Origin: Acidimicrobiales bacterium
GTDB taxonomy: Bacteria; Actinomycetota; Acidimicrobiia; Acidimicrobiales; Aldehydirespiratoraceae
Assembly (NCBI GenBank): GCA_040263275.1
Contig: JBDQKM010000001.1
Location: forward strand, 1-62,099
Direction: 5' to 3'
DNA: 62,099 bases
This document shows, one piece after another, positions 17,581 to 41,592 of the stretch. The first letter of the stretch is position 1. Each line of letters begins with the position of its first letter. A program made the position numbers and the translations under genes. Under the pieces are notes generated by a model that was given only the letters and a program-made list of their open reading frames with translations, searched no databases and had not been told where the DNA came from.

Positions 17581-17715
17581 TTGGAGCCGACCGACATCCA
17601 GGACCAGACCAGCACCGACGAAGTCGTCGACACCGCCGCCGAGAGTGGCGAACTCGTCGAGGACGAGCTGCTCGTCGAGGAGATCTCCATCGACGGGATG
17701 TGCGGCGTCTACTAG
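17581..17715 (+). CDS. mftA: mycofactocin precursor peptide MftA (44 aa; not in the ORF track)
   Basis: TTG start at 17581 with GGAGGG 5 nt upstream (alternative in-frame GTG at 17563); TAG at 17713-17715. Translation LEPTDIQDQTSTDEVVDTAAESGELVEDELLVEEISIDGMCGVY ends in the invariant MftA core IDGMCGVY. mftB and mftC follow immediately. Confidence 0.88.
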   Translation: MEPTDIQDQTSTDEVVDTAAESGELVEDELLVEEISIDGMCGVY

Positions 17716-17719
17716 CCCG

Positions 17720-17986
17720 ATGGACTTCGATGCCGGCCGTCGCTACCGGTTGCACGAGCGCGTCGCCCTTCGCCCCGAACCCTTCGGTGCCTTGGCCTAC
17801 CACTACGGCAATCGTCGATTGAACTTCCTCCGCGCCCCCGAGCTCGTCACCGTCGTCGAGTCGCTCGACGATCACGACACACCGCGGGCGGCATTCGACG
17901 CGGCCGGGATCGAACCCCGCCGGTGGCCATCGTTCGAGAAGGCCCTCGCCTCGCTCGCCGCATCCGACTTCCTGGTGGCCGCATGA
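17720..17986 (+). CDS. mftB: mycofactocin biosynthesis chaperone MftB (RRE peptide-binding protein)
   Basis: 88 aa from the ATG at 17720 (MDFDAGRRYRLHERVALRPEPFGALAYHYGNRRLNFL...), the typical MftB N-terminus. The track start at 17645 would overlap mftA. Its stop overlaps the mftC start (ATGA). Confidence 0.9.
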   Translation: MDFDAGRRYRLHERVALRPEPFGALAYHYGNRRLNFLRAPELVTVVESLDDHDTPRAAFDAAGIEPRRWPSFEKALASLAASDFLVAA

Positions 17987-19155
17987 CCGATCTGCAGATA
18001 CCCACCACACCGGTGCCCGGCAACCTCGTGCTGTCGCCGGTCAAGCAGAGCGGCCTCGGCGAACAGATGAAGGCCGGACTCGACGCCCCCATCTGCCTCA
18101 CCTGGGAACTCACCTATGCGTGCAACCTCCAGTGTGTGCACTGTCTCTCGTCGAGTGGGCGCCGCGACCCCCGTGAGCTGACCACCGCCGAAGCGGAGGC
18201 CGTCATCGACGAGCTCGAGCGGATGCAGGTCTTCTACATCAACATCGGCGGCGGAGAACCCACGATCCGCCCCGACTTCTGGCACCTCGTCGAGTACGCC
18301 GTCGACCACGGGGTCGGAGTGAAGTTCTCCACGAACGGGTCGAAGATCGACGCCGACGTCGCCCGCAAGCTCGCCGGCATGGACTATGTCGACGTCCAGA
18401 TCTCGATCGACGGTGCCGACGCCGCCACCAACGACGCCGTCCGCGGCGAGGGTTCGTTCGCCACCGCCGTCGCGGCGATGGAGCACCTCCACGACGCCGG
18501 TTTCGGCGAGTTCAAGATCAGCGTCGTCATGACCCGCCACAACATCCCTCAGGTCGACGAGTTCAAGGCGATGGCCGACCGGTTCGGGGCCCAACTCCGG
18601 CTGACCCGCTTCCGCCCGTCCGGTCGCGGAGCCGACAGCTGGCACGAGCTGCACCCGACCGACCAACAGCAGCGCGACCTCTACCACTGGCTCCTCGATC
18701 GGCCCGATGTGCTGACCGGCGACTCGTTCTTCCACCTGTCGGCCCTCGGCGAGGCGCTTCCCGGTCTCAACCTGTGTGGCGCCGGTCGCGTCGTGTGCCT
18801 GATCGATCCGCTCGGCGATGTCTACGCGTGTCCCTTCGTGCTGCACGACGAGTTCCTCGCCGGCAGCGTGCGAGACGAAGGCGGCTTCCAACGGGTCTGG
18901 CAGGAGAGCGATCTCTTCCGCGAGCTCCGCGAGCCCCAGTCGGCCGGTGCGTGTGCTTCGTGTGGCCACTTCGACGCCTGCCAGGGCGGCTGCATGGCGG
19001 CCAAGTTCTTCACGGGCATTCCGCTCGACGGTCCCGATCCCGAGTGTGTGCTCGGGCATGGCGAGCCGCTCGTCGAGGCCGCCGACCAGGCGCTGCGCCC
19101 GGTCGGCCAGGACCACTCCCGTCCCACCCCGGTGAAGTTCCTCGGCCGCAAGTGA
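17983..19155 (+). CDS. mftC: mycofactocin radical SAM maturase MftC (rSAM/SPASM)
   Basis: 390 aa from the ATG at 17983. CxxxCxxC cluster (YACNLQCVHC), GGGEP, and C-terminal SPASM cysteines (CGAGR...YACPF...CASCGHFDACQGGC). Confidence 0.95.
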   Translation: MTDLQIPTTPVPGNLVLSPVKQSGLGEQMKAGLDAPICLTWELTYACNLQCVHCLSSSGRRDPRELTTAEAEAVIDELERMQVFYINIGGGEPTIRPDFWHLVEYAVDHGVGVKFSTNGSKIDADVARKLAGMDYVDVQISIDGADAATNDAVRGEGSFATAVAAMEHLHDAGFGEFKISVVMTRHNIPQVDEFKAMADRFGAQLRLTRFRPSGRGADSWHELHPTDQQQRDLYHWLLDRPDVLTGDSFFHLSALGEALPGLNLCGAGRVVCLIDPLGDVYACPFVLHDEFLAGSVRDEGGFQRVWQESDLFRELREPQSAGACASCGHFDACQGGCMAAKFFTGIPLDGPDPECVLGHGEPLVEAADQALRPVGQDHSRPTPVKFLGRK

Positions 19156-20081
19156 TGCGTCGTCTCGCCGCAGTCGGCTGTGTGCTGGTCCTGCTGAGCG
19201 CCGCCTGCAGCGACGACGGCGAGTCGACGCCTTCATCCACCTCCACCACCACACAGGCCCCCGCCTCGTCGACCACCGTCGCGACGACATTGGCTCCGAC
19301 CACCACGGTCGGGCCCGACGAGGGGTGCACGGCCGATGCCACCGAGATGCGCACGATCGATGTCTGGATCGATCGGCCGACGATCGAGGGCCCGTGGCCG
19401 CTGATCGTGTTCTCCCACGGTCTCACCGGGCACCCCTTCTCCCACGTGACCCACCGTCGGGAGCTCGCCGCCCAGTGCTTCGTCGTGGTCGCGCCGGCGT
19501 TTCCGCTCACCAACAACGACGTCCCGAACGCGTTCCTGAACGCGGGCGACACCGCCGGCCAGGTCGGCGACGTGTCGTTCCTCATCGACGAGATGCTGGC
19601 CGACGATGCCCTGGCACCGTTCATCGATCCGGGTCGCATCGGCGCCCTCGGGCACTCGCTCGGCGGCCTCACGACCGCCGGTGCGGCGTTGTCTCCCGAC
19701 GGTGATCAGCGCATCTCCGCTGCGGTGGTCATCTCGGCCGGCTTCGGCGACGTGCGCGACGACGTCGCGGTCATGGTGCTCCACGGCGATGCCGACAATG
19801 TGATCGCCGTCGACAGCAGCATCACGTCCTACGCCTTCGTCGACGGCCGGGGGATCTTCGTGACCCTTCTCGGCGGTGACCACATCGCCGGAATCATCGA
19901 CGGCGAGTCGATCTACGGCCCGGTGGTCCGTGGACTGACCGGCGCCTTCTTCGCCCACGAGCTCGACAACGGTTCCGCTCCGATCGACGCCGTGCCCGAA
20001 CTTCGGCTCGATCTGGCGACCATCGAGGCCCGCACGGCCGATGGGCCGCTCGATGACTGGGCCGAGTACTTCGGCGTCTGA
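19155..20081 (+). CDS. secreted lipoprotein, alpha/beta-hydrolase fold (GxSxG)
   Basis: 308 aa. Signal peptide plus lipobox (VLVLLSAAC), a Ser/Thr-rich linker, and nucleophile elbow GHSLGG. Its ATG overlaps the mftC TGA (TGATG). Confidence 0.8.
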   Translation: MRRLAAVGCVLVLLSAACSDDGESTPSSTSTTTQAPASSTTVATTLAPTTTVGPDEGCTADATEMRTIDVWIDRPTIEGPWPLIVFSHGLTGHPFSHVTHRRELAAQCFVVVAPAFPLTNNDVPNAFLNAGDTAGQVGDVSFLIDEMLADDALAPFIDPGRIGALGHSLGGLTTAGAALSPDGDQRISAAVVISAGFGDVRDDVAVMVLHGDADNVIAVDSSITSYAFVDGRGIFVTLLGGDHIAGIIDGESIYGPVVRGLTGAFFAHELDNGSAPIDAVPELRLDLATIEARTADGPLDDWAEYFGV

Positions 20082-20090
20082 GGGCAGGCT

Positions 20091-20624
20091 CTAGGGCCGC
20101 TGATCCCGCACGGTCTTCACGTGGTCGATCGCCTCGCGTAGCTCGCGGATCCAGTCGTCCTCGTGTTGGCCGACGAGACGCACGCACCACGCCAAGGCCT
20201 CGCTACGACTGCGGGCGACACCGGCGTCGATCAGGGTGTCGAGCACCTGGCGCTCGTCGATCCGCAGCCGGGTCATGGCCGGCGCGTTGACGGTGGTGAA
20301 CCGGGCTTCCGTCTCGCCGCAGACGACCGCCCAACTCACCTTGCGGGCGAAGGTGGCCTCGGCCTCGTCGGCGATCGTCATTCGCTGTTCGCGGGTGGCC
20401 TCCCGAAAGGCCACGATCTGTTGTTCGTGGCTGAGTCCGGCGCCGGGGGGGCCGAGGTTGCCGGTGACGAGGATCTCGTCGGCGTCGTGGCGCACCGTCG
20501 GCGGCTCGACGAACCAGCCGTCGGGGAGCGCGTCGGCGAACCAACCGAGGAGGGTGGCCGTGTCGGTGGCCGGCGCAGCGGCGGAACGCTCACGTCGGGA
20601 TCGGGGGGTGCGGGGAGGAGTCAT
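20091..20624 (-). CDS. hypothetical protein with C-terminal ribbon-helix-helix-like domain
   Basis: Track ORF trimmed to the ATG at 20624 (MTPPRTPRS...). C-terminal MTRLRIDERQVLDTLIDAGVARSRSEALAWCVRLV resembles CopG/RHH. The start choice is uncertain. Confidence 0.55.
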   Translation of the reverse strand: MTPPRTPRSRRERSAAAPATDTATLLGWFADALPDGWFVEPPTVRHDADEILVTGNLGPPGAGLSHEQQIVAFREATREQRMTIADEAEATFARKVSWAVVCGETEARFTTVNAPAMTRLRIDERQVLDTLIDAGVARSRSEALAWCVRLVGQHEDDWIRELREAIDHVKTVRDQRP

Positions 20625-20688
20625 GGGAATAGTTCGTAACCTAGATCGTTGTAAGCCAGTAATCAAGAACTGGAGGAAGGCTCATTAC

Positions 20689-22692
<2,004 letters not shown>

Positions 22693-22693
22693 T

Positions 22694-23398
22694 TCAGCGG
22701 CGGCTGAGCAGGCTCAGCACGTACCAGAACATGGTCATCACCGACGAGAACAGGCCCAGGGCCGCGGCGACGTGGGCCTGGGCCGGGTACTTCCGGATGA
22801 TGGTCTGGGTCTGGTAGAGGATGGCCACGCCCGAGAGGGCGATCATCGCGAGCGAGAACCACACGCCGAGGCTGAAGCCGAAGAGCACGGCGGCGACGAT
22901 CAGGGCCAGTGCCACCACGAAGCCGTACATCACGATCGGCCGCAGGAACGACAGGTCCTTGCGGGTGATGAACCCGACCACGGTGAGGCCGGAGAAGGCG
23001 ATGGCGGTGATGAGGGCCGCCGCGGCGACCGTGGTGCCGCCGTTGTCGGTCTCACGGAAGACGTAGTGCAGCATCGGGGCGAACAGCACGGCATAGAGCC
23101 CGGCCGATCCGAAGAGCGCGGCGTATTGCTTCGACGGGTTGAGGAGGTCGGCGGCCGCGTTGGCCACGATCCACTGGCCGACCATGAAGCCGCCCAGGAT
23201 GACCAACCAGGTCATGCCGCTGCCGGAGACGAGGTCGAAGATGCCCTTGGCGATCGGCGTGTTGAGGAAGATCGCCTCGACACCGACGAACACGAGAATC
23301 GCGGCCATCAGGTGCTGATAGACGCGCACCACGAAGTCGCCGCGGGCTTCGTCGTCGAGGGCCGCTACCGGGCGGAGGTCGAGATCACTGTTGCTCAT
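22694..23398 (-). CDS. Bax-inhibitor-1/YccA-family membrane protein
   Basis: 234 aa with seven hydrophobic segments. N-terminus (FVVRVYQHLMAAILVFVG...) is typical of the BI-1 family. Confidence 0.85.
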   Translation of the reverse strand: MSNSDLDLRPVAALDDEARGDFVVRVYQHLMAAILVFVGVEAIFLNTPIAKGIFDLVSGSGMTWLVILGGFMVGQWIVANAAADLLNPSKQYAALFGSAGLYAVLFAPMLHYVFRETDNGGTTVAAAALITAIAFSGLTVVGFITRKDLSFLRPIVMYGFVVALALIVAAVLFGFSLGVWFSLAMIALSGVAILYQTQTIIRKYPAQAHVAAALGLFSSVMTMFWYVLSLLSRR

Positions 23399-23449
23399 GA
23401 GCCGCAGGATACCGCCGAATCGTGAACCGCCCTGAGCGGGTCGCGCTGA

Positions 23450-24643
23450 TCAGGGGTGCTCGGGAAGCTGGATGACGCCGGCGTCGAGCAGCGCCTGGCG
23501 TTGTTCCGGGGTGATGCCGATGTCGTTCAGGACCTCGTCGACGTGCTCGTTGAGCAGCGGGGCCGACGCCTTGAACTCCGGCGGGGTCGCGCTGAACTGC
23601 GCCGACATGCGAGGGCTGCGGATGCGTCCGGCGGCCGGGTGCTCCCACTCCACGAACGTGCCGCTGTGCACGATCTGCGGATCGGTCGGGAGGTCCTCCA
23701 TCTGGTTGACGTGGCCGCACGGCACCGAGCGCTCGTGCATGCGGGGCAGGAGATCGGCGACCTTCCATTCGAGGAACGCGTTGCCGAGGAGGGCGCCGAT
23801 CTCCTCCTGCTTTCCATGGCGCTGTTCGGTGGTGCCGTAGGCCTCGACCCACTCGGGGTGCCCCAGCGCCTCGAAGAGGCCCTGGAACTGTCCGTCGGAG
23901 ATCACGAAGTAGACGATGTGGCCGTCGGCGCACTGGCTCAGCGTGTAGATCTCGCTGAGGCGGTAGCCGCGGGGGATGTCGGGGTCGAGCATGGTGTCGG
24001 CCATCCCGCCGTCGGGCCACAGGAACTGCACGGCGATGTCGAGCATCGAGAGCTCGATGTGTTGCCCGCCGTTGCCCTCGTTGCGGGCGTGCAGGGCGCT
24101 GGTGATGGCGAGGGCGGCCATCCATGCCGCCGCCTTGTCGACCACACCGTTGCGGACGAGGTCGGGGACCGGCACCTGCGGGTTCACTTGGAGCGCGACA
24201 TAGCCGGCCATTGCCTGCACGATCGGGTCGTAGACGGCCCGGTCGGCGTAGGGACCCGACGAGCCGTAGCCCGACATCGAGCAGTAGATGATCTCCGGGT
24301 TCACCGCGGCGCTTCCCTCCCAGCCGACGCCGAGCCGCTCCATCACCCCGGGACGCATGTTCTGCACCACCACGTCGGCGTCGCGGATCAGATCGAGGAC
24401 GAGATCCCGGCCGGCGTCCTGCTGGATGTCGACCTGGATGGACCGCTTGCCCCGGTTGTTGTTGACGACAGAACTGTTGAGCCCGCCCTTGGCGAACTGG
24501 GCCAGTCGGGTGAGGTCGCCGAAGGCCGGCGGCTCGACCTTGGTCACCTCGGCGCCGAGGTCGCTCAGGAGCATGCAGGCCAGCGGTCCCGCGATCACCT
24601 GGGTCATGTCGACGACCTTGATTCCTTCGAGTGGACCTGGCAT
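23450..24643 (-). CDS. CaiB/BaiF-family (class III) CoA-transferase
   Basis: 397 aa from the ATG at 24643 (MPGPLEGIKVVDMTQVIAGPLACMLLSDLGAEVTKVEPP...), the canonical family-III CoA-transferase N-terminus. Confidence 0.9.
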   Translation of the reverse strand: MPGPLEGIKVVDMTQVIAGPLACMLLSDLGAEVTKVEPPAFGDLTRLAQFAKGGLNSSVVNNNRGKRSIQVDIQQDAGRDLVLDLIRDADVVVQNMRPGVMERLGVGWEGSAAVNPEIIYCSMSGYGSSGPYADRAVYDPIVQAMAGYVALQVNPQVPVPDLVRNGVVDKAAAWMAALAITSALHARNEGNGGQHIELSMLDIAVQFLWPDGGMADTMLDPDIPRGYRLSEIYTLSQCADGHIVYFVISDGQFQGLFEALGHPEWVEAYGTTEQRHGKQEEIGALLGNAFLEWKVADLLPRMHERSVPCGHVNQMEDLPTDPQIVHSGTFVEWEHPAAGRIRSPRMSAQFSATPPEFKASAPLLNEHVDEVLNDIGITPEQRQALLDAGVIQLPEHP

Positions 24644-24736
24644 CTCGACCCCTTTCGTCCGCGAGCGCGACCCTAGCCGTGTAGCCTCAGCCAGCAGTTT
24701 TGGCCGACCGGCCAACCGGAACACCAGGAGTCCCCC

Positions 24737-24919
24737 ATGGGCATTCTCGACAAGATCAAGGGCCTCGTCGGCGGCAACGCCGACAAGGTCGAAGACGCCA
24801 TCGACAAGGCCGCCGACGTCGCCAAGGACAAGGTGCCCGACGCGCACGACGACAAGGTCGACATGGCCGCCGACAAGGCGAAGGACCTCGTCGACGGTCT
24901 CGACGGCGACGACGCCTGA
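24737..24919 (+). CDS. small MT0933/Rv0909-like antitoxin-type (CsbD-like) protein
   Basis: 60 aa, MGILDKIKGLVGGNADKVEDAIDKAADVAKDKV.... AGGAG SD upstream and a hairpin terminator downstream. Confidence 0.6.
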   Translation: MGILDKIKGLVGGNADKVEDAIDKAADVAKDKVPDAHDDKVDMAADKAKDLVDGLDGDDA

Positions 24920-24939
24920 GCGTCAGTAGATTCCTGAGG

Positions 24940-24961
24940 ACCGCGCCCCTCGGGGCGCGGT
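24940..24961 (+). terminator. intrinsic terminator-like hairpin
   Basis: ACCGCGCCC-CTCG-GGGCGCGGT, followed by TCTTCGCG. Confidence 0.5.
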
Positions 24962-25030
24962 TCTTCGCGTCCGGGCCGACTCGCGCGTTCCGGCTCCCCG
25001 CCGGTACCGTCGTAGGCCGGATGAGAGGTC

Positions 25031-26209
25031 ATGCGCGTGGGTAATCCCTGGTTTGAAACGGTCGCCATCGCTCAGGAGCGGGCCAAGAAGCGACTCCCGA
25101 AGTCGGTCTACGGCGCCCTGATCGCCGGTGCCGAGGCCGGCATCTCGATGCGCGACAACGTGTCGGCCTTCGACGAGATCGGCTTCCGGCCGGTCACGGC
25201 CGGCCAGGCCGCCGAGCGTTCGATGGACGTCACGGTCATGGGCCAGTCGGCATCGATGCCGGTGATCATGTCGCCCACCGGCGTGCAGGCCGTGCATCCC
25301 GACGGTGAGGTCGCCGTCGCGGCCGGAGCCGCCAATCGGGGCATTCCTTCCGGTCTCAGCTCGTTCGCCTCGAAGCCGATCGAAGAGGTCGCGGCCGTCA
25401 ATTCGCAGCTCTTCTTCCAGATCTACTGGGCCGGCGACAAGGACTCCATGCTCGCCCGGATCGCCCGGGCCAAGGCGGCGGGCGCCGTCGGTCTGATCCT
25501 CACGCTCGACTGGTCGTTCTCGCACGGCCGCGACTGGGGAAGCCCGGCCATCCCGCAGTCCTTCACCCTCAAGGAACTCATTCCTCATGCCCCCGACGTG
25601 CTCCGCAAGCCGCGCTGGGCGTGGACCTGGGCGAAGTCGGGTCAGATCCCGCGGCTGACGGTGCCCAACTTCGCGACCGGCGGCGACACGCCGCCGGTCT
25701 TCTTCGAGGCCTACGGCACCTGGATGGGCACACCCCCGCCGACGTGGGACGATGTCGCCTGGCTGCGTGAGCAGTGGGACGGGCCGTTCATGGTCAAGGG
25801 CGTCGTGCGGGCCGACGAGGCCCGTCGCGCCGTCGACGCCGGCGCCACCTGCGTGTCGGTCTCGAACCACGGCGGCAACAATGTCGACGGCGCCCCTGCG
25901 TCGATCCGCATGTTGCCGGAGATTGTGGCCGCGGTCGGCGATCAGGTCGAGGTCGTGCTCGACGGTGGCGTGCGCCGCGGATCCGATGTGGTCAAGGCCT
26001 GCGCTCTGGGCGCCGATGCGGTGCTCATCGGTCGCGCCTACCTCTGGGGCCTCGCCGCCAACGGCCAGGCCGGTGTCGAGAACGTGCTCGACATCCTGCG
26101 CGGTGGCATCGACGCGACCCTTCGGGGCATCGGCGTCGACTCGATCGCCGATCTCACGCCCGACGACGTCATCGTCCCCGACGGCTTCTCACCGCCGCCC
26201 CTCGGCTGA
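25031..26209 (+). CDS. mftD: pre-mycofactocin synthase MftD (FMN-dependent alpha-hydroxy-acid-oxidase fold)
   Basis: 392 aa. The N-terminus NPWFETVAIAQERAKKRLPKSVYGALIAGAE... is characteristic of MftD. FMN-dehydrogenase motifs are present (SNHGGN, GGVRRGSDVVKA). Confidence 0.88.
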   Translation: MRVGNPWFETVAIAQERAKKRLPKSVYGALIAGAEAGISMRDNVSAFDEIGFRPVTAGQAAERSMDVTVMGQSASMPVIMSPTGVQAVHPDGEVAVAAGAANRGIPSGLSSFASKPIEEVAAVNSQLFFQIYWAGDKDSMLARIARAKAAGAVGLILTLDWSFSHGRDWGSPAIPQSFTLKELIPHAPDVLRKPRWAWTWAKSGQIPRLTVPNFATGGDTPPVFFEAYGTWMGTPPPTWDDVAWLREQWDGPFMVKGVVRADEARRAVDAGATCVSVSNHGGNNVDGAPASIRMLPEIVAAVGDQVEVVLDGGVRRGSDVVKACALGADAVLIGRAYLWGLAANGQAGVENVLDILRGGIDATLRGIGVDSIADLTPDDVIVPDGFSPPPLG

Positions 26210-26227
26210 CCCGAGCCCCCGCCGCAA

Positions 26228-26422: not shown

Positions 26423-26443
26423 CGCGACGTCGTCGTAGACCCC

Positions 26444-33204: not shown

Positions 33205-34155
33205 GTGAGCGGTCCCCTGGTCGTCGAGGTTCTCCGAGGTACCGAGGTCGAGAGCCGCCACGAGGTCGATGTCGTGGCGGTCGACGAAGTCGGCCGGGTG
33301 CTCTGGTCCCGCGGCGACGGCGCCCGGCCGGTCCTTCCCCGTTCGTCCTTGAAGCCGGTCCAGGCACTCCCGCTGGTTCGCTCCGGCGCGGCCGACGCCC
33401 ACGCGGCCTCGGTGGTGCGGCTCGCCCTGTCGTGCGCCAGCCACGGCGGCGAGCCGGCCCACGTCGCCGAGGTCGACGCCTGGCTGGCCGATCTCGGGTG
33501 CACGGTGGCCGACCTCGAGTGCGGTGCCCACCCGCCCACGCATCGTCCGAGTGCCGATGCGCTGGTGGCCGCCGGGGGGCAACCATCGGCCGTGCACCAC
33601 ACGTGTTCGGGCAAACATGCGGGTTTCCTGTCGGTGTGTCGCCACCTCGGACTCGACCCGTCCGGCTACCGCACGCCGGGTCACCCCCTCCAGGACGCAT
33701 GGGTCACCCCGGCGACCGAGGACGCCTGCGGGATCTCGCTCGCCGGAGCGACTCCGGGCGCCGACGGTTGTGGCATACCGGTGTGGACCATGCCGCTCGA
33801 TCGGTTGGCCGCAGGTTGGGCGTCCCTCGGCGGGCACGACGACGGTCGGCGAATCCTCGCCGCGATGATGGAGGCCCCGTTCATGGTCGGTGGGACCGAC
33901 CGAGCATGCACCCGGATCATGGAGGCGGCCGAGGGGCGAGTCGCCGTCAAGACCGGAGCCGAGGGCGTCTACTGCGGGCTGGCGATCGAGTCGGGCGCCG
34001 CGGTCGCCCTCAAGGTGCGAGACGGAGCGACGCGGGCGAGTGAACCGGCGATCGAGTGGGCGATGGCGGAGTTGGGCGTGGGCCCGCGACCGCGTCCGGA
34101 GATCCTCCGCAACGCCGCCGGCACGACCGTCGGCGAGATCCGTATCGGCGACTGA
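33205..34155 (+). CDS. asparaginase-II-family protein (PF06089-like)
   Basis: 316 aa from the GTG at 33205. RSSLKPVQALP, SCASHGGEP and CSGKHAGFL motifs. Confidence 0.8.
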   Translation: MSGPLVVEVLRGTEVESRHEVDVVAVDEVGRVLWSRGDGARPVLPRSSLKPVQALPLVRSGAADAHAASVVRLALSCASHGGEPAHVAEVDAWLADLGCTVADLECGAHPPTHRPSADALVAAGGQPSAVHHTCSGKHAGFLSVCRHLGLDPSGYRTPGHPLQDAWVTPATEDACGISLAGATPGADGCGIPVWTMPLDRLAAGWASLGGHDDGRRILAAMMEAPFMVGGTDRACTRIMEAAEGRVAVKTGAEGVYCGLAIESGAAVALKVRDGATRASEPAIEWAMAELGVGPRPRPEILRNAAGTTVGEIRIGD

Positions 34156-34258: not shown

Positions 34259-35371
34259 ATGAAGACCAGAGCTGCCATTCTCCGTGAAGTCGGTGCCGAC
34301 TGGAGTGTCGAGGAGATCGAGCTCGACGATCCGCAGCCCGGCGAGATCCTCGTCAAGACCCTCGCGGCCGGCATGTGCCATTCCGACGAGCACGCCCACG
34401 ACGGCACGATGCCCGTCCCGCTGCCGCTCGTGGGTGGTCACGAAGGCGCCGGCGAGGTCATCGGCCTCGGCGAGGGCGTCACCGAATTCGAGATCGGCGA
34501 CCATGTGTCGTGCTCGTTCATCCCCTCCTGCGGCAAGTGCCGGTGGTGCGCCTCGGGCCAGCAGAACCTCTGCGACCTCGGAATGCACCTGATGGAGCCC
34601 GGGATGATGGCCGGCGGTTTCCGTCACCACAGCGCGGCCGGCGAGGATCTCACCCCGCTCCTCAAGCTCGGCACCTTCGCCGAACACATGATCCTCAGCG
34701 TCGACTCCGCCATCAAGGTGCAGAAGGACGTGCCCGCCGGTCCCGCCGCGCTGGTGAGCTGCGGTGTCACGACCGGATACGGCTCGGCCGTCAACCGGGC
34801 TGGCGTCACCGCCGGCGACACGGTGGTCATCGTCGGTGCCGGTGGCCTCGGCCATGCCGCCATCCAGGGCGCGAAGGTCGCCGGGGCCAAGAACGTCATC
34901 GCCGTCGATCCGTCCGAGTTCAAGCGCGAGAGCGCCCAGGAGTTCGGCGCCACGCACGCGGCCGAGTCCATGGAGGAAGCGATGGCGCTCGTCGGCGGCA
35001 TCACCGAGGGCGTGATGGCCGACAGTGTCATCCTCACCCCGGGTGTCCTCACCGGCGACATGATCGCTCCGGCCCAGTTCCTCACCCGCAAGGGCGGCAC
35101 CATCGTTGCGACGGCGGTGGCCAACGCGATGGCGATGGACGTCCAGCTCAACCTCTTCGAGTTCGCCATGATGAACAAGGAACTCAAGGGTTGCCTCTTC
35201 GGCTCGGCCGCTCCCCGCAAGGAGATCCCGCATCTCCTGTCCATGTACCAGGCCGGTCAGCTCAAGCTCGACGAGATGATCACCAACACCTACACGCTCG
35301 ATCAGGTGAACGAGGGCTACGCCGACATGCTCGCGAACAAGAACGTTCGCGGCGTGATCATGTTCGACTGA
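34259..35371 (+). CDS. Zn-dependent alcohol dehydrogenase, NDMA-/mycofactocin-dependent type (paralog of 31145..32284)
   Basis: 370 aa from the ATG at 34259 (MKTRAAILREVGADWSVEEIELD...). Same CGKCRWCASGQQNLCD block as the first ADH, and roughly two-thirds identical to it by eye. Confidence 0.88.
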   Translation: MKTRAAILREVGADWSVEEIELDDPQPGEILVKTLAAGMCHSDEHAHDGTMPVPLPLVGGHEGAGEVIGLGEGVTEFEIGDHVSCSFIPSCGKCRWCASGQQNLCDLGMHLMEPGMMAGGFRHHSAAGEDLTPLLKLGTFAEHMILSVDSAIKVQKDVPAGPAALVSCGVTTGYGSAVNRAGVTAGDTVVIVGAGGLGHAAIQGAKVAGAKNVIAVDPSEFKRESAQEFGATHAAESMEEAMALVGGITEGVMADSVILTPGVLTGDMIAPAQFLTRKGGTIVATAVANAMAMDVQLNLFEFAMMNKELKGCLFGSAAPRKEIPHLLSMYQAGQLKLDEMITNTYTLDQVNEGYADMLANKNVRGVIMFD

Positions 35372-35393
35372 TCCGGACGAGGGCCGACAACCA

Positions 35394-36323
35394 ATGAGTT
35401 CACTCGACGACGCCGCGGTGCTCGACGCGCTCGACGACGCGCTGGTCGGTCGTCGTCGCGAACTCGAACTGCTCGTCGCCGCCCTTGCGGCGGACCGCCA
35501 CGTACTCCTCGAGGGGCCACCCGGCACCGGCAAGTCGACCATGCTGCGCGAGGTCGCCAATGCGGCGGGGACGGGCTTCGTCTTCGTGGAGGGCAATGCC
35601 GAACTCACCCCGGCGCGACTGGCCGGCCAGTTCGACCCGGCCCGGGTGCTCGAGGAGGGCTATGTGCCCGACGTGTTCGTCGACGGTCCGCTGGTCGAGG
35701 CGTTGCGGGCAGGTTCCCTGCTCTACGTGGAGGAGCTCAACCGTGTCCCAGAGGAGACGGTGAACCTCCTGATCTCGGTGATGTCGGAAGGAGAGTTGCA
35801 TCTCCCCCGCATCGGTCGCATCGCGGCGGCCCCCGGATTCCGACTCGTCGCGGCCATGAACCCCTTCGACAATGTCGGCACGGCCCGCGTGTCCGGTGCG
35901 GTCTACGACCGGATGTGTCGTATCGCGATGGGCTACCAGAGCCGTGACGACGAGGCCGACATCGTCGGTCGGCGGGCCTGCCAGTCCGGTGACCTCATCC
36001 TGGTGCGCGCCGTGCTGGTCACCCGGGGCACGCGCAACCACAGCGACATCCGGGTCGGCTCGTCGGTTCGCGGCGCGATCGACCTCGTGGAGGTCGCGAC
36101 GCAGCTCGCCGGGATCCGCGGTGTCGACGTGACCGACCCCGAGGTCGGCCTCGATGCGGCGCTCGTCGCACTCTCGGGACGGATCCGGCTCCACGAGGGT
36201 GGCGACACCGACCCCGAGGACGTGATCCGCGATCTATGGAACCAGGTCCTCGCCGCGGAGAACCCCGAGCCCTCCCTCACCGACCAGGAACGCGACGATC
36301 AGGGAAAAGTGGGAGCCCCCTAG
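35394..36323 (+). CDS. MoxR-like AAA+ ATPase
   Basis: 309 aa. Walker A LLEGPPGTGKST, Walker B LLYVEELNR, and AAMNP. Confidence 0.9.
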   Translation: MSSLDDAAVLDALDDALVGRRRELELLVAALAADRHVLLEGPPGTGKSTMLREVANAAGTGFVFVEGNAELTPARLAGQFDPARVLEEGYVPDVFVDGPLVEALRAGSLLYVEELNRVPEETVNLLISVMSEGELHLPRIGRIAAAPGFRLVAAMNPFDNVGTARVSGAVYDRMCRIAMGYQSRDDEADIVGRRACQSGDLILVRAVLVTRGTRNHSDIRVGSSVRGAIDLVEVATQLAGIRGVDVTDPEVGLDAALVALSGRIRLHEGGDTDPEDVIRDLWNQVLAAENPEPSLTDQERDDQGKVGAP

Positions 36324-37267
36324 GGGGCGACCCGGGCGCGCCGCTCACCCTCGAGGGCGATGATGCCCAGGAGGCCCTGGCCGAGGAGAACCGCCGGACC
36401 ACGCCCCGCGAGCAGCTGCGCCGTGACCCGGCGTTCGACGACGTCTCGCCCGATGTCGGTGAGATCGATGAGCAGGCGCTGGCCCAACTGGTCGAGGAGG
36501 ACGCCGACCACGCCCTGTCGCTGCTGGCCGAGATGACCGCTGCCACCGACCCCACGCTGGCCTCGCTCGCCGCCCGACTGGCCGGGCGCCTGCTGCTCGA
36601 CGTCGCTCGGGTCGGCCCGTCCGAGAGTCGCGGGATCGGTCGGCTGGTGACCGGCGCGGCCGACCGGTTCGACGGCGACCTCGACGTCGACGCGAGCCTC
36701 GACGCCCTCCTCGATGCCCGGGCCGGTGGGCGGTCGCTGGTCGCCGACGAACTTCGCGTCCGTCACTGGACCAAGCCCGCCATGGCGCTGTCGTTGCTGG
36801 TCGACCGCAGTGGCTCGATGAGTGGTGATCGGCTGGCGACGGCGGCAGTGGCCGCGGCGGCATGTTCCTGGCGTGCGCCCTCCGACTGGTCGGTGCTGGC
36901 GTTCTCCGACCGGCAACTCGCGCTCAAGGCCCAGGACGACGAGCGCGCCGCCGCAGTCGTGGTCGACGACCTGCTTCGGCTCCGCGGTCGAGGGACGACC
37001 GACCTCGACGCGGCCTTGCGCAGTTCCGCTCGGCAACTCGAGCGGTCGAGAGCAAAGCGCCGCGTCACGATCCTGCTGTCGGACTGTCGGGCCACCGCCG
37101 GTGTCGATCCGGTGCGCTCGGCGCGCGGCCTCGACGAGCTCTGTGTGATCGCGCCGGCCGATGATGCGGATGACGCGAGGGAGTTCGCCCGCTCGGTCGG
37201 CGCGACGTTCGCCTCGGTGAAGTCGGCGCTCGAGATCCCCGCGGCCCTGGCCGCGGTCCTCGCCTGA
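36236..37267 (+). CDS. VWA-domain protein (MoxR partner)
   Basis: MIDAS motif LLVDRSGSMSG. The only canonical in-frame start is the ATG at 36236, which overlaps moxR by 88 nt, so the true start is uncertain. Confidence 0.7.
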   Translation: MEPGPRRGEPRALPHRPGTRRSGKSGSPLGGDPGAPLTLEGDDAQEALAEENRRTTPREQLRRDPAFDDVSPDVGEIDEQALAQLVEEDADHALSLLAEMTAATDPTLASLAARLAGRLLLDVARVGPSESRGIGRLVTGAADRFDGDLDVDASLDALLDARAGGRSLVADELRVRHWTKPAMALSLLVDRSGSMSGDRLATAAVAAAACSWRAPSDWSVLAFSDRQLALKAQDDERAAAVVVDDLLRLRGRGTTDLDAALRSSARQLERSRAKRRVTILLSDCRATAGVDPVRSARGLDELCVIAPADDADDAREFARSVGATFASVKSALEIPAALAAVLA

Positions 37268-37287: not shown

Positions 37288-38997
37288 CTAGCGAGGGTCG
37301 GCCTGGGGTCCGCGGACCAGCCGGCCGGGATGTTCGCCGGTGAACTCGTCGTCGACGACGGTGACGGTGCCCCGACACACGGTTGCGCCGTAGCCGTGGG
37401 CTCGCTGCACATAGCGGTTGGCGCCGGTCGGCAGATCGCCGACGAGGTGGGGGAGTTCGACGCCGAGTCCGTCGACGTCGATCACGTTGACGTCGCCTCG
37501 GTAGCCCGGCGCGATCAGCCCGCGGTCGCGGAGTCCGTAGAGTTCCGCGGTCTGGCGGGTCTGGCGGTGGACAACCCATTCGAGCGGCATGTGGGCGCCC
37601 CGCTCCCGATCACGGGCCCAGAACTGCAGCATGAACGTGGGCATGCCGCCGTCGGCGATGGTGCCGCAGTGGGCGCCCGCGTCGGCGAGGCCCATGCGGG
37701 TGTGGGGATGCTGATGGAGCTCCCAGAGATGGTCGAGGTTGTGGTTGCTGTAGTTGAACAGGGGGAAGTAGAGGAGGCCGCGCCCGTCCTCGGTCATCAG
37801 GTGGTCGTAGGCGATCTCTGCCGGTGTCCGAGTGTCATGCGCGGCGAGGGGGCCGCACGCGGCCGCCGGGTCTGGCTCGTAGTCGGCTTCGCCCGCGAAG
37901 GGGTAGAGCTTGTCCCACGTCCGGGTGACCGACGTGATGAAGTCGCTCCACACGGCGGGGGCCTCGGTGGTGAGCGCCGAGCGCACGTCGTCGCGGCGCA
38001 GGTGGGCGAGACGCTCCTCCTCCGGCAGCTGACCGATCAGGCCCCACGTGGGGCACAGCATGAAGGGATTCACCGTCGCGGACCACGACTCGAGGATGCC
38101 CACCGGGCGGCCCGAGACCTGTGCCAGGACGTTGAGCCCGTCGGCCTGGGCCTCGTCGAGCAGACGCAGGTCCTCCCGCCAGAGGTCGGGCGCGTAGTCG
38201 GGTTGGTTCAGGTTGAAGACCACCGGTTGACCGGTGACCCCGGCGACCGCGCGCATCCATCCGAACGACTCCGGGACGTCGGCGTGGTGGGACGCGGTCT
38301 GGAAGACGCCGTGGCCGACCCGCTTGATCGCGTCGGCGATCGCGAGGAGTTCGGTGTCGGTCGCGAACGTGCCGGGGACCAATTCGCCGTCGACCGACTT
38401 GTGCAGCGGGGTCCGTGAGGTCGAGAACCCGAGGGCGCCGACCTCGAGCGCCTCCTGCACCAGCATCGCCATGCGGTCGATGTCGTCGTCGCCCGCGTCG
38501 CCGAGTGCCCGCTCGCCCATCACGTAGGCACGAAGGGCGCCGTGGGGGATCTGGGCGCCGAGGTCGAGCACCCAGGAGCGTTGCTGCAATTCGTCGAGGT
38601 ACTCGGGAAAGGTCTCCCAACCCCACTGGATGCCGTCGGTGAGGGCCGCGCCGGGGATGTCCTCGACCCCTTCCATGAGCTCGATGAGCCAGTCGCGGCG
38701 GGCGGGCTCGACCGGCGCGAAGCCGACGCCACAGTTGCCCATGACCACAGAGGTGACGCCGTGCCATCCGGACGGGGTCAGCTCGGGATCCCACGTGGCC
38801 TGCGCGTCGTAGTGCGTGTGGGTGTCGACGAACCCCGGCGTGACCACGCGGCCCTCGGCGTCGATCTCGCGGTGGCCGGCACCGATGTCGGTGCCGACCG
38901 CCACGATCGTCTCGCCGTCGATGGCGATGTCGCCGGGAGTGGCGGGAGTGCCGGACCCGTCGATGATCCGACCGTTGCGAATGACGAGATCGTGCAT
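37288..38997 (-). CDS. N-acyl-D-amino-acid deacylase (D-aminoacylase) family amidohydrolase
   Basis: 569 aa from the ATG at 38997 (MHDLVIRNGRIIDGSGTPATPGDIAIDGETIVAVG...PGFVDTHTHYD...). The upstream part of the track ORF is antisense to mftF. Confidence 0.85.
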   Translation of the reverse strand: MHDLVIRNGRIIDGSGTPATPGDIAIDGETIVAVGTDIGAGHREIDAEGRVVTPGFVDTHTHYDAQATWDPELTPSGWHGVTSVVMGNCGVGFAPVEPARRDWLIELMEGVEDIPGAALTDGIQWGWETFPEYLDELQQRSWVLDLGAQIPHGALRAYVMGERALGDAGDDDIDRMAMLVQEALEVGALGFSTSRTPLHKSVDGELVPGTFATDTELLAIADAIKRVGHGVFQTASHHADVPESFGWMRAVAGVTGQPVVFNLNQPDYAPDLWREDLRLLDEAQADGLNVLAQVSGRPVGILESWSATVNPFMLCPTWGLIGQLPEEERLAHLRRDDVRSALTTEAPAVWSDFITSVTRTWDKLYPFAGEADYEPDPAAACGPLAAHDTRTPAEIAYDHLMTEDGRGLLYFPLFNYSNHNLDHLWELHQHPHTRMGLADAGAHCGTIADGGMPTFMLQFWARDRERGAHMPLEWVVHRQTRQTAELYGLRDRGLIAPGYRGDVNVIDVDGLGVELPHLVGDLPTGANRYVQRAHGYGATVCRGTVTVVDDEFTGEHPGRLVRGPQADPR

Positions 38998-39037
38998 GGC
39001 CCGAGCGTAGGCGGTGACCGGGGGTACCGTCCTGTGC

Positions 39038-40477
39038 ATGGCCGACCTGCTGCCGCCGTCGGGCATCCGCCTCGTGGCCGACGAAGGGCTGCGTCGACTC
39101 GACGAGGGGCGAGTGCTCGTGGGCGGTTCTCCTCTGCGCATCGTCACGTTGTCCGAGGCCGGCGCGGCCGTGGTCGAGGCCTGGGTCGGCGGGCGTCCGC
39201 TCGCCGCGGTGCGATCGGCGAGAGTCCTGGCTCGTCGGCTGCTCGACGCCGGCATGCTCCACCCGGTCGTCACGCCGGTCGACACCCCGGTGCCGGTCAC
39301 GGTCGTCGTGCCGGTGAAGGACGACGCCGACGGTCTCGCTCGGCTGTTGCCGACGATCGGCAGCCCGACGGTGATCACGACCGTGGTGGTCGACGACGGG
39401 TCGGGTGATGCCGACGCGATCGCCCGCGTCGCCCGAGCCCATGGCGCGACCCTCGAGCGTCGTGAGACGAGCGGTGGCCCAGGGGTGGCCCGCATGACCG
39501 GTCTCGATCGGGTCGAGACCGCGCTCGTCGCGTTCGTCGATGCCGACGTCGAGTTGCCCCTGGGCTGGTGGACCGCGCTCTCGCCCCACTTCGACGACCC
39601 GGCGGTGGTCGCCGTCGCCCCGCGCGTCGCCAGCGCCCCCGGTCCCTCCCTCCGCGAGCGCTACGAGGCGGTTCACTCGCCGCTCGACCTCGGCGCCTCG
39701 CCCGCATCGGTGGCGCCCCGACGGCGGATGGCCTACGTGCCGAGCGCCGTGTTGACGGCCCGCGTCGATGCCGTCCGCGCGGCGGGAGGCTTCGACCCCG
39801 ACCTGCGCACGGGAGAAGACGTCGATCTGGTGTGGCGGCTGGCCGACCGAGGGGGGACGGTGCGCTACGCACCAGAAGTCCGAGCGCAGCACCGACCCCG
39901 TGGATCGTGGTTGGCAATGGTTCGACAACGTGTGGACTACGGGGCGTCGGCTGCCGCCCTCGCCGAGCGGCACGGCGCGGCGGTCGCGCCGGCGCGGTGT
40001 TCCCGTTGGAGTCTGGGCGCCTGGGGCCTCGTCGCCCTCGGCCGACCCCTGTCGGGCCTGGCCGTGGCTGCCGGTTCCACGGCGGCGCTGGCCCGTCGAC
40101 TGTCCGGTCTTCCCGGTGGCCGTCGTGAGGCGTTGCGAATCGCCGGGTGGGGCAATCTCCACGCGGGAACCGGTCTGGCTCGCGCGGTGTCGCGGGTGTG
40201 GTGGCCGGTCGCGTTGCCGCTGGCCCGGTTTCGGCCCCTCCGCCGTGCGGTGATCGGCGCGATGGTCCTCCCCGCGGCGGCGGGGTGGGTCCGTGGGCTC
40301 AGACCGGCCGGTCCCGTTCGATCCGTTGCGCTGCGAATCGCCGACGACATGGCCTACGGCATCGGCGTCTGGCGGGGTGTCGTCAGCCGGCGAGACCCCC
40401 GTGCCCTGCTGCCGGAGTTGACCGAGTGGCCGGGCGGGCGCGGGCCCGTCGAGACCGATACGGTCGCGACGCGATGA
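39038..40477 (+). CDS. mftF: mycofactocin glycosyltransferase MftF (GT2)
   Basis: N-terminal mft-specific domain, then a GT2 core (VTVVVPVKDD...VVVDDGSGD...AFVDADV...GEDVDLVWRL), then C-terminal TM segments. The ATG at 39038 is preferred because TACCGT lies 7 nt upstream; the track GTG at 39014 is the alternative. Confidence 0.85.
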   Translation: MADLLPPSGIRLVADEGLRRLDEGRVLVGGSPLRIVTLSEAGAAVVEAWVGGRPLAAVRSARVLARRLLDAGMLHPVVTPVDTPVPVTVVVPVKDDADGLARLLPTIGSPTVITTVVVDDGSGDADAIARVARAHGATLERRETSGGPGVARMTGLDRVETALVAFVDADVELPLGWWTALSPHFDDPAVVAVAPRVASAPGPSLRERYEAVHSPLDLGASPASVAPRRRMAYVPSAVLTARVDAVRAAGGFDPDLRTGEDVDLVWRLADRGGTVRYAPEVRAQHRPRGSWLAMVRQRVDYGASAAALAERHGAAVAPARCSRWSLGAWGLVALGRPLSGLAVAAGSTAALARRLSGLPGGRREALRIAGWGNLHAGTGLARAVSRVWWPVALPLARFRPLRRAVIGAMVLPAAAGWVRGLRPAGPVRSVALRIADDMAYGIGVWRGVVSRRDPRALLPELTEWPGGRGPVETDTVATR

Positions 40478-41592
40478 GCTCACTGATCCCCGAACGTGTG
40501 TCCAAGCTGCTCGACCGGTGTGCCCGGGAGGTCGACGAGGGGCGGATACCCGGCTGTCAGGTCGCCGTCGGCTTCGAAGGCGAGGTCGTGGTCTTCGAGG
40601 CGTTCGGTGATCTCACGACCGACCACCGGCTCCACACGTACTCGGCGATCAAGCCCACGGTGGCGCTCACGGTCCTCGAACTCGCGGCCGAGGGCTTGCT
40701 CGATCTCGAGGCGCCGGTGTCATCAGTGCTTCCCGGCTTCGCGGCCAACGGGAAACACACGATCACGCTGTCGCAGGTGCTCCTGCATGCCGGCGGCTTC
40801 CCGCACGCCCCCCTCGGCGTCGACGACTTCGGCGATCGGACCCGACGTCTGGCCCGCTACGAGTCGTGGCGAACCACCTGGGAGCCGGGGACGGCATTCG
40901 AGTACCACGCCTCCGCCGCCCACTGGGTGCTGGCCGACTGCATCACCGAGGTGACCGGCCGTCACCATGCCGACGTGGTGACCGAACGGGTGATGGAACC
41001 CGCCGGCTGCGGCCGCTGGCTGGGCATCGCGCCCGAGGACCAGCACGACATCGCCGACGTGGTGTCGGTCGGCGAGGCCCCCGACCTCGAGGCGATGGCA
41101 CAGCAGTTCGGCATCGAGGAGATGCCGACCACGGAGGTCACCGACGACGCCCTGCTCGGGTTCAACGATCCGGCCGTGCGGGCCGCGGGTCACCCGGGCG
41201 GAGGCGGCATCGCGTCCGCCGCAGACCTCGCCAGGTGGTACCAGGCGGTGCTCCACGACGACGGTGGGTTCCTGCACCCCGAGGTGAAGCGCGACGCGCT
41301 CGAGGTCGTACGCCAGAACCACACCGACTGGCTGGGGGTGGCCGCCAACCGCACCCACGCCTTCACCCTCGGCGGCGACGACGGTCAGATCGTGATGCGT
41401 GGCTATGGCCACACGACCGGACCGGCGACGTTCGGACACGGCGGCGCGAAGGGTCAGCGGGCGTGGGCCGACCCCGACACCGGCATCTCTCTCGGATTCA
41501 TGACGCACGGGCTCGACCGCGATGATCTCGTCACCGCTCGTCGCGGCGCCGGCGTGTCCTCGGCGGCCGGAGCCCTCACCACGCCGATCTAG
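40474..41592 (+). CDS. beta-lactamase-fold serine hydrolase
   Basis: 372 aa from the ATG at 40474. SxxK motif (YSAIKP), a YHAS (YxN-like) motif, and HGG near the C-terminus. Its start overlaps the mftF stop (ATGA). Confidence 0.8.
   Translation: MSSLIPERVSKLLDRCAREVDEGRIPGCQVAVGFEGEVVVFEAFGDLTTDHRLHTYSAIKPTVALTVLELAAEGLLDLEAPVSSVLPGFAANGKHTITLSQVLLHAGGFPHAPLGVDDFGDRTRRLARYESWRTTWEPGTAFEYHASAAHWVLADCITEVTGRHHADVVTERVMEPAGCGRWLGIAPEDQHDIADVVSVGEAPDLEAMAQQFGIEEMPTTEVTDDALLGFNDPAVRAAGHPGGGGIASAADLARWYQAVLHDDGGFLHPEVKRDALEVVRQNHTDWLGVAANRTHAFTLGGDDGQIVMRGYGHTTGPATFGHGGAKGQRAWADPDTGISLGFMTHGLDRDDLVTARRGAGVSSAAGALTTPI

Follow-up and report, generated by a model that had tools for sequence, protein, structure and literature searches.

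A complete mycofactocin gene set in an expanded, collinear layout without a local MftR in an Acidimicrobiales bacterium

In the standard pathway of mycofactocin (mft) biosynthesis, MftB binds the precursor peptide MftA, MftC decarboxylates and cyclizes its C-terminal Val-Tyr, MftE releases AHDP, MftD oxidizes AHDP to premycofactocin, and MftF glycosylates premycofactocin. In mycobacteria (Rv0691c-Rv0696 in Mycobacterium tuberculosis and MSMEG_1420-1428 in Mycobacterium smegmatis), the locus consists of mftR and mftABCDEF(G) within ~6-8 kb. The gene mftR encodes a repressor whose repression is relieved by long-chain acyl-CoAs (PMC8728441), and the absence of MftR from some species with mft genes was already noted in 2011 (PMC3023750); MftG, a GMC oxidoreductase, is present in ~75% of mft genomes (PMC11778925). 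Here we analyzed 62,099 nucleotides of DNA from a marine-type, uncultured member of the Acidimicrobiales (assembly GCA_040263275.1, contig JBDQKM010000001.1, positions 1 to 62,099; referred to below as the window, with forward-strand coordinates) and found one genuine and complete set of the six biosynthetic genes, stretched over 22.9 kb from mftA to mftF.

In common with the mycobacterial locus, that of the window has the six biosynthetic families in A-B-C-D-E-F order, a precursor with the C-terminus IDGMCGVY, nicotinoprotein partners of the short-chain dehydrogenase/reductase (SDR) and alcohol dehydrogenase (ADH) types, and an association with acyl-CoA metabolism. Unlike in mycobacteria, the genes are split by opposite-strand genes into at least four units, there is neither an MftR nor the 27-bp MftR operator upstream of mftA, MftG is missing from the window, and the partner ADHs are of the Zn type (TIGR03989) rather than the Fe-type Mno/Mdo. 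The locus departs only from the mycobacterial template of a compact operon with MftR (and MftG). We consider it likely that the window carries a single complete mycofactocin system in an expanded, collinear and locally MftR-less layout, expressed from at least four units that have their own TANNNT promoters, and this system is probably functional. Its Mft proteins would follow the standard pathway, and the cofactor would serve the nicotinoprotein dehydrogenases whose genes are interspersed with mft, namely, one SDR and two Zn-ADHs.

The mft genes and the absence of MftR from the window

Genes were called by third-position GC, the GC content of the window being uniformly high (0.64-0.73), and the calls were then compared with those on near-identical public contigs; identities were tested with the mft-specific equivalog models of NCBIfam/TIGRFAM and their curated bit-score cutoffs. 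All six mft genes lie on the forward strand. The precursor peptide of 44 amino acids (aa) is encoded by mftA (17581-17715; TIGR03969, 46 bits versus a cutoff of 25), which has a TTG start six bases after AGGAGG and whose product has the C-terminus EEISIDGMCGVY. After a gap of 4 nt follows mftB (17720-17986), encoding the precursor-binding chaperone (TIGR03967, 105 versus 33), the stop codon of which overlaps by 4 nt (ATGA) the start of mftC (17983-19155), the gene for the radical SAM/SPASM maturase (TIGR03962, 625 versus 265). The FMN-dependent premycofactocin synthase gene mftD is located at 25031-26209 (TIGR03966, 650 versus 471), mftE, encoding the creatininase-family peptidase that releases AHDP, at 29585-30250 (TIGR03964, 275 versus 172), and mftF, encoding the mycofactocin glycosyltransferase, at 39038-40477 (TIGR03965, 372 versus 280). 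The 29585 start of mftE is favored because, in the longer open reading frame (ORF) starting at 29531, the TIGR03964 match sets in only at about residue 27, and the ATG of mftF at 39038 is preferred over the GTG at 39014 chosen by the gene caller because the promoter geometry fits it better. The gaps between mftC and mftD, mftD and mftE, and mftE and mftF are 5876, 3376, and 8788 bp, so that the positions of mftABC, mftD, mftE, and mftF in the original prediction, and its spacings of 5.9, 3.4, and 8.8 kb, were correct. That prediction had left room for mftD, mftE, and mftF being generic lactate-oxidase, creatininase, and GT2 paralogs. This can be set aside, since the paralog families score far lower and do not reach their own cutoffs: L-lactate dehydrogenase, the next-best family of MftD, reaches 252 versus 376, the creatininase model 105 versus 235 with MftE, and the GT2 model EpsD 62 versus 370 with MftF. 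Alignments were full length for the six Mft proteins as well as for the SDR and both ADHs, all of which score above their family cutoffs.

Statements on absence apply to the window. A TetR_N hidden Markov model was built iteratively, starting from phmmer searches with TetR(B), QacR, and EthR (with few matches at first) and finally comprising 39 sequences, and gave no match at an E value of ≤10 in any six-frame ORF of ≥50 aa. The same model detects the divergent TetR beside mftA/B in Prauserella, Actinophytocola, Saccharomonospora, Saccharopolyspora, and Aquihabitans sp. G128, and in Prauserella and Aquihabitans this protein exceeds the cutoff of TIGR03968, the model for MftR (272 and 238 versus 224.9). 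With these working controls, the earlier statement that no TetR-type mftR is present in the window is confirmed. Neither MftR (TIGR03968) nor MftR2 (NF038211) is found beside mftA, and Pfam/NCBIfam scans of every plausible ORF upstream of the locus revealed no TetR_N domain. The upstream genes encode a PspC-histidine kinase, a LuxR response regulator, two SDRs, an enoyl-CoA hydratase, an OsmC protein, an acetyl-CoA-synthetase-like enzyme, a HAD phosphatase, an M48 peptidase, a GT2-PilZ protein, a GNAT protein, a DUF2237 protein, an F420-LLM oxidoreductase, and a GAF-GGDEF-EAL protein. Downstream of mftF lie genes for a beta-lactamase-fold hydrolase, an MFS transporter, an enoyl-CoA hydratase, a 441-aa protein of no recognized family, and an ECF sigma factor, followed by tRNAs, secE-nusG-rplKAJL, and rpoBC-sized ORFs, with no TetR-family protein among them. 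No GMC_oxred family, and hence no MftG, appears in the Pfam listings of the called genes across the window, and the sole transcription factor encoded inside the mft locus is an AbmR-type protein (20091-20666). In relatives, no TetR adjoins mftA at a Pseudonocardia locus (L082; relatives' loci are given L numbers here where they need to be told apart), and the TetR proteins near the mft loci of four others (L025, L059, L060, and L080) are KstR-, BetI-, or FabR-like and score far below the MftR and MftR2 cutoffs. Judged by these comparisons, the missing local MftR is a feature of the locus in this clade. In one subclade (11 loci), a palindrome, GGCGAATCGCC, is located ~35-45 nt upstream of the mftA -10 box and is a candidate operator; it is absent from the window, where its position is taken by the GGDEF-EAL coding sequence.

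Thirty-one window proteins were mapped by tblastn on 80 mftC-centered, 80 mftF-centered, and 79 ADH2-centered loci with flanks of up to ±10 kb; ADH2 is the second of the two Zn-ADHs, and the scan based on it was added because the mftF-based genome scan had missed the closest relatives, MftF diverging fast. In the wider clade of the window, the order of the backbone is constant, and the loci differ in spacing alone. Its left half consists of the F420-LLM gene (reverse strand), mftABC, a variable stretch, mftD, a second variable stretch, and mftE-SDR with or without ADH1. The right half consists of a further variable stretch, ADH2-MoxR-VWA, an optional amidohydrolase gene (reverse strand), and mftF with or without the beta-lactamase-fold gene, and the downstream flank of MFS, enoyl-CoA hydratase, and 441-aa protein genes (all on the reverse strand) is conserved. 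In Aquihabitans sp. G128 (L203), a member of the same order whose MftC is 71% identical to that of the window, a divergent MftR is kept, and mftABC-D-E-SDR-F, followed by ADH-MoxR-VWA, takes up ~5.7 kb, whereas in the lineage of the window ADH-MoxR-VWA and other genes stand between mftE and mftF and there is no MftR at the locus. From mftA to mftF, L177 measures ~11.7 kb, L170 (Aldehydirespiratoraceae), in which mftC, mftD, mftE, the SDR gene, and ADH1 are contiguous, ~14.4 kb, and L005/L168, a single contig that belongs to the closest relative whose locus is contained completely in one contig (MftC, 91%), ~21 kb. Loci of "Candidatus Aldehydirespiratoraceae" and related metagenome-assembled genomes (MAGs), such as L170, L024, L177, and L005/L168, share the backbone, have no TetR adjacent, and conserve the mftD and mftE boxes described below; in comparison with them, the window has the most intercalated genes and a broken lon. 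Its extras relative to L177 are GGDEF-EAL before mftA; the hydrolase, AbmR, and lon genes after mftC; the CoA-transferase gene before MT0933; a 64-aa ORF, two acyl-CoA dehydrogenase (ACAD) genes, and TauD between mftD and mftE (also found in L006); and ADH1, the thioesterase gene, and asparaginase-II between the SDR gene and ADH2.

The original prediction took canonical loci to be compact, which holds for Mycobacteriales and Pseudonocardiales but not for the sampled Acidimicrobiia, in which dispersed loci are the majority: mftC, mftD, mftE, and mftF fall within ±10 kb at only 12 of the 47 mftC-centered and 8 of the 43 mftF-centered loci with full flanks. An isolated mftE-mftF pair is seen in many Acidimicrobiia. 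At five loci of Aldehydirespirator-type genomes (L046, L050, L185, L186, and L192), mftABC is directly followed by SDR-ADH-MoxR-VWA and, further on, mftF, with no mftD or mftE within 10 kb; the mft set there is either still more dispersed or reduced. On this comparative evidence, the layout in the window is typical of the lineage and stands at the long end of a collinear series rather than being a one-off rearrangement. Since compact, MftR-bearing loci occur in outgroup actinomycetes and in Aquihabitans, stepwise expansion with loss or relocation of MftR is the most economical explanation. The ancestral locus would have been compact and would have had MftR, and blocks of client and accessory genes, many of them on the opposite strand, would have accumulated stepwise between the mft genes, the additions being concerned with acyl-CoA metabolism, amide hydrolysis, MoxR-VWA, and AbmR-lon-Bax1. 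A literature search found no paper joining mycofactocin with Acidimicrobiia and none relevant for mycofactocin and MoxR, and the class-level collinear dispersal appears to be undescribed in the searchable literature, as an incremental observation of comparative genomics.

Transcription units and predicted promoters

Because opposite-strand genes lie within the mftC-mftD, mftD-mftE, and mftE-mftF intervals, the mft genes belong to at least four transcription units and do not form a single operon. The first comprises mftABC and a hydrolase gene, with 4-nt overlaps; the second is mftD, upstream of which, after MT0933, a GC-rich hairpin is located at ~24940-24966 that was not called by a generic terminator scan; the third is mftE-SDR-ADH1, with gaps of 35 and 67 nt; and the fourth is mftF with the beta-lactamase-fold gene, overlapping by 4 nt. 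Each of them would start at its own housekeeping-type TANNNT -10 box, mftA being led by a Shine-Dalgarno (SD) sequence, mftD having a short leader, and mftE and mftF being leaderless. For mftA, the candidate box is TACTCT (17527-17532, forward strand, as are the following three), which comes right after the GGDEF-EAL stop codon, leaves a leader of ~40 nt with the SD sequence AGGAGG, and would act as the promoter; a cTAnnnTg box, a leader of 20-45 nt, and GAGGAGG are conserved upstream of mftA in ~40 relatives. The candidate box of mftD is TACCGTC (25005-25011), which stands 20 nt 5' of the ATG, with the SD sequence GAGAGG in between, and relatives have GGTAC[C/G]GTC 6-8 nt before an mftD GTG start. 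Leaderless-type boxes, again TACCGTC, are predicted 7 nt before the ATG codons of mftE (29572-29578) and mftF (39025-39031). In front of mftE, relatives have TACGCT or TACGAT, 6 nt, and then ATG or GTG, and this is kept even where mftD and mftE are adjacent. The TACCGT hexamers that the original prediction had placed 7 nt before these two ATG codons are exactly there (29572-29577 and 39025-39030).

In actinobacterial leaderless transcription, TANNNT stands ~6-8 nt before an ATG or GTG that serves as both transcription start and start codon, and the box spacing before mftE, mftF, and the TauD, amidohydrolase, Bax1-I, OsmC, and asparaginase-II genes, among others, fits this pattern, without an SD sequence. 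Across the window, TANNNT plus 6-8 nt plus a start codon precedes 9-10 of 38 genes versus ~0.5 expected from our own base-composition estimate, the others, in addition to those just named, being an SDR gene and the LuxR regulator gene; in the case of TauD, the box is TAGTGT, 6 nt before the ATG. In a departure from the described pattern, the predicted leaderless promoters of the window include two divergent pairs in intergenic regions of only 23 and 40 bp, that is, TauD/mftE (29559-29587) and amidohydrolase/mftF (38995-39040). In both regions, TANNNT stands 6-7 nt before both starts, and the -10 boxes of TauD and mftE overlap by a common TA; back-to-back divergent leaderless promoters are therefore predicted there. 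The view that mftE and mftF are independent leaderless units is, as a prediction, well supported by gene strand and conserved boxes, but the box itself is a general promoter habit of the window and not specific to mft genes. Rfam revealed only tRNAs, with no riboswitch or known small RNA (sRNA) in the locus. As there is no local MftR-type repressor, coordination of the units would have to come from similar promoters or from another trans-acting factor.

The lon block and alternative explanations

The block at 20091-24919, between mftC and mftD, was originally read as an insertion or rearrangement marked by a decayed lon. It starts with the gene for an AbmR-type (Rv1265-like) ATP-binding transcription factor (20091-20666, reverse strand; NF058631, 203 versus 160), divergent from lon (20689-22692, forward strand) across 22 bp, and this pair is kept in L004, L007, L012, L022, and L041. 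The sRNA Mcr11 of M. tuberculosis is under the control of AbmR; here, the 22-bp interval leaves no room for an sRNA gene. The block continues with genes for a Bax1-I membrane protein (22694-23398, reverse strand; PF01027), a family III CoA-transferase (23450-24643, reverse strand; Pfam CoA_transf_3, with the best NCBIfam matches below their cutoffs), and a 60-aa MT0933-like protein (24737-24919, forward strand; PF14013), the last being internally repetitive (24747-24898), with a register of ~12-33 nt and a D-K-V/A-x-D-type repeat. Compared with the intact 781-aa Lon of two independent assemblies that are 98-99% identical to the window (L001 and L326), lon has three lesions, all private to the window: a 330-bp in-frame deletion bounded by short repeats that removes 110 aa of the substrate-binding N-domain, a TAC>TAG change at 21910-21912 (Y522*), and A688D beside the catalytic Ser, where five of five outgroup Lon proteins have Ala. 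The alleles differ by 41 synonymous and 13 nonsynonymous codons, and such a preponderance of synonymous differences speaks for purifying selection and function until recently, so that long-term decay was rejected as an explanation; the lesions are due either to pseudogene formation at the strain level or to an error in the consensus. Of the 67 substitutions that separate the window from the 99%-identical L001, 54 fall within lon (21043-22513), the flanks being almost identical, and this cluster points to an exchanged or divergent allele, through recombination or strain mixing.

That the whole layout is an assembly or binning chimera joining separate regions is almost certainly wrong. The sequence is derived from a metagenome, and the burst of differences in lon could reflect strain mixing; however, JGI, ENA, and Logan assemblies overlap every junction. 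The JGI contig L001 is 99% identical over 15436-27823, a 52-kb ENA contig (k141_649937, comprising L326 and L084; ~98%) spans the locus from mftB through mftF to rplL in identical order, shorter Logan and JGI contigs cover the stretch from mftD to asparaginase-II, and another species (L005/L168, on one 98-kb contig) has the same order. A layout reproduced by independent assemblies is therefore no assembly artifact. The best MftC matches are in Acidimicrobiales MAGs, with 95% identity in DHS20C19 and 90-92% in three others, one of which is labeled "Ca. Aldehydirespiratoraceae". It is likewise very improbable that the scattered mftD, mftE, and mftF are accessory paralogs of a working system encoded by a second, compact MftR operon elsewhere. 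The window alone is visible and contains no MftR or MftG, which would suit this idea, but mftA, mftB, and mftC are in the same locus, the model scores of MftD, MftE, and MftF exceed those with the paralog families by far, and the same collinear set recurs in dozens of relatives, complete chromosomes included. Moreover, no assembly is represented more than once among the best 80 mftC loci, and this speaks against relatives having a second copy. It is also improbable that a formerly compact mft operon was split in this genome by a recent insertion or rearrangement of which the decaying lon block would be the mark. The three disabling lesions in lon are in favor of such an event, as are nine Aldehydirespiratoraceae loci in which mftC is directly followed by mftD, so that the interval is dispensable. 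Against it, the block is also found in the near-identical assemblies, where lon is intact, the gene was under purifying selection until recently, and components of the block are found at the same position in relatives of different depths: Bax1-I with or without MT0933 separates mftC from mftD in >15 loci down to ~77% MftC identity, AbmR-lon does so in L004, L007, and L041, and the CoA-transferase gene only in L005-L007. The block flanks have no direct or inverted repeats, the matches obtained being short, of low identity, and of the kind usual for GC-rich coding DNA, the gene lists contain no integrase or transposase genes in the block, and there is no shift in GC content. What stood of the original reading is the broken lon; the block is not one insertion, its parts being shared with relatives to different depths, and as a recent event the insertion is, on this synteny, largely refuted.

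As to regulation, the shared heptamer TACCGTC at mftD, mftE, and mftF might be bound by, or be a specialized promoter element for, a dedicated regulator acting in trans or a dedicated sigma factor, which would stand in for MftR in coordinating the scattered units, an idea that we regard as unlikely. Three of the four TACCGTC sites found on both strands of the 62 kb lie 7, 7, and 20 nt upstream of mftE, mftF, and mftD, respectively, and the seven other leaderless-type boxes have other NNN cores (3/3 versus 0/7; Fisher P of ~0.008, calculated post hoc). The total, however, is at chance level (3.97 sites expected), and the core varies among relatives (TACGGT, TACGCT, TACGAT, TAGCCT, and TACCCT), with TANNNT and the spacing alone being conserved; the box of mftA is TACTCT. 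TACCGTC and TACCGT were accordingly rejected as enriched motifs, as the overall counts are not raised and their placement alone is nonrandom. Outside the mft locus, TACCGT occurs three times, including 45114-45119, before a tRNA cluster (tRNAs at 45167-45341), and 51628-51633, before the rpoB-sized ORF, which suggests a favored housekeeping -10 hexamer. An expanded single system with separate housekeeping-type promoters remains the reading that we prefer, and several points weigh against it. A generic sigma-70 consensus scan found no promoter in the region, and the promoters and leaderless starts are predictions; the heptamer common to three mft boxes and to none of the other boxes in the window could reflect dedicated co-regulation; the polarity from a compact ancestor comes from outgroup comparison and not from a reconstructed tree; and the genome outside the 62 kb examined may encode MftR or MftG or contain a further copy of the mft set.

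Client and intervening genes and their meaning

The three clients named in the original prediction, an mft-coupled SDR and two NDMA-type Zn-ADHs, were verified by their family models, and its names for the acyl-CoA and amide metabolism genes in the gaps also hold. The SDR gene (30286-31077, forward strand; TIGR04504, 341 versus 250; NF040491, 309 versus 265) is adjacent to mftE in nearly all relatives and probably cotranscribed with it; an exact-sequence lookup of the SDR protein returned no record. The NDMA-dependent Zn-ADHs, which are of the nicotinoprotein type, are encoded by ADH1 (31145-32284) and ADH2 (34259-35371), both on the forward strand, and score 523 and 507, respectively, versus a TIGR03989 cutoff of 440. 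Between mftD and mftE, an opposite-strand unit (26228-29561) assigned by Pfam/NCBIfam consists of TauD (28737-29561), a large ACAD gene (27540-28724), a small ACAD gene (26444-27529), and the 64-aa ORF (26228-26422), and this block also follows mftD in L006. An acyl-CoA thioesterase gene of the 4HBT_3 (TesB-like) type (32281-33033, reverse strand; Pfam, with a weak tesB match) comes after ADH1, and the Asparaginase_II gene (33205-34155, forward strand; PF06089), with TAGCCT 6 nt before its GTG, heads the ADH2 unit.

ADH2 is followed on the forward strand by genes for a MoxR-type AAA+ ATPase (35394-36323; Pfam AAA_5/bpMoxR) and a CoxE-like VWA protein (36533-37267; Pfam VWA_CoxE). This ADH-MoxR-VWA order is found at mft loci throughout the Acidimicrobiia, down to ~55% ADH identity. 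The triad (34259-37267 in the window) was also seen at 15 further individual loci and at many of L200-L243, and it was not seen in the sampled ADH loci of Mycolicibacterium, Frankia, and Actinomadura. MoxR-VWA may serve nicotinoprotein ADHs as a chaperone or activase. In this regard, the mycofactocin-dependent ADH MSMEG_6242 of M. smegmatis, which shares its regulation with MSMEG_6241, an AAA ATPase, and MSMEG_6240 (PMC7174638, PMC8406134), is a partial precedent for the triad.

The gene for the Amidohydro_3 (D-aminoacylase-like) hydrolase (37288-38997, reverse strand; Pfam), with TACGCT 6 nt before its ATG, is divergent from mftF and occupies the same position in L038/L177, L087, L167, L168, L176, and L182. 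A beta-lactamase-fold serine hydrolase gene (40474-41592, forward strand; LipE/EstB-like, PF00144, with NCBIfam matches below cutoff) overlaps the mftF stop codon by 4 nt and lies directly 3' of mftF in at least 11 relatives; its product is better conserved than MftF itself. In the Aldehydirespiratoraceae proper, this gene is missing after mftF, and the MFS gene stands in its place. At the end of the mftABC unit, an alpha/beta-hydrolase gene (19152-20081, forward strand; Pfam, a weak PAF-AH/chlorophyllase-like match) is probably the last gene, as it overlaps the mftC stop codon by 4 nt, and orthologs (53-55%) follow mftC in L004, L005, and L007. Judged by eye, the N terminus of this hydrolase resembles a lipoprotein signal, and the window copy is shorter by 54 bp, in frame, than those of L001 and L326.

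Directly upstream of mftA, a GAF-GGDEF-EAL signaling protein is encoded at 14198-17524 (forward strand; Pfam EAL, GGDEF, and GAF). The gene is located between the F420-LLM gene and mftA in the window, L005, and L007 and is absent from most other relatives. In the window it is one ORF of 1108 aa, versus two called genes (a GGDEF part and a 221-aa EAL protein) at positions 1-2089 of L001; this split on a 99.8%-identical JGI contig means a disrupting change in one of the two sequences. The F420-dependent LLM-class oxidoreductase gene (13025-14062, reverse strand; TIGR03617, 351 versus 278) is the left neighbor of mftA in most relatives, so that users of a second unusual redox cofactor would flank the mft locus.

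A further-reaching proposal, which we regard as speculative and rather doubtful, is that the Acidimicrobiia mft locus is a conserved "supercluster" with accessory components not yet recognized as such. MoxR-VWA, which invariably comes after an ADH of the mycofactocin type, could then be a maturation or reactivation chaperone for nicotinoprotein dehydrogenases, the beta-lactamase-fold hydrolase, translationally coupled to mftF, could be a tailoring enzyme, and coordination without MftR could be achieved by a shared promoter element, an AbmR-type regulator, or c-di-GMP from the GGDEF-EAL protein. The window otherwise appears ordinary, with no sign of a new mechanism.

Mycofactocin biology has been worked out almost wholly in mycobacteria, on the basis of one MftR-repressed operon. 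In the Acidimicrobiia, which are mostly uncultured marine and soil Actinomycetota, dispersal is routine: the six genes keep a fixed order but are interspersed with those for client dehydrogenases and for acyl-CoA and amide metabolism, usually without MftR. Rules for genome mining that demand a compact cluster or an MftR will therefore under-call mycofactocin systems in these lineages, and the genes that recur at the locus, that is, ADH-MoxR-VWA, the beta-lactamase-fold gene, and the ACAD/TauD/amidohydrolase blocks, are leads to mycofactocin-dependent metabolism.

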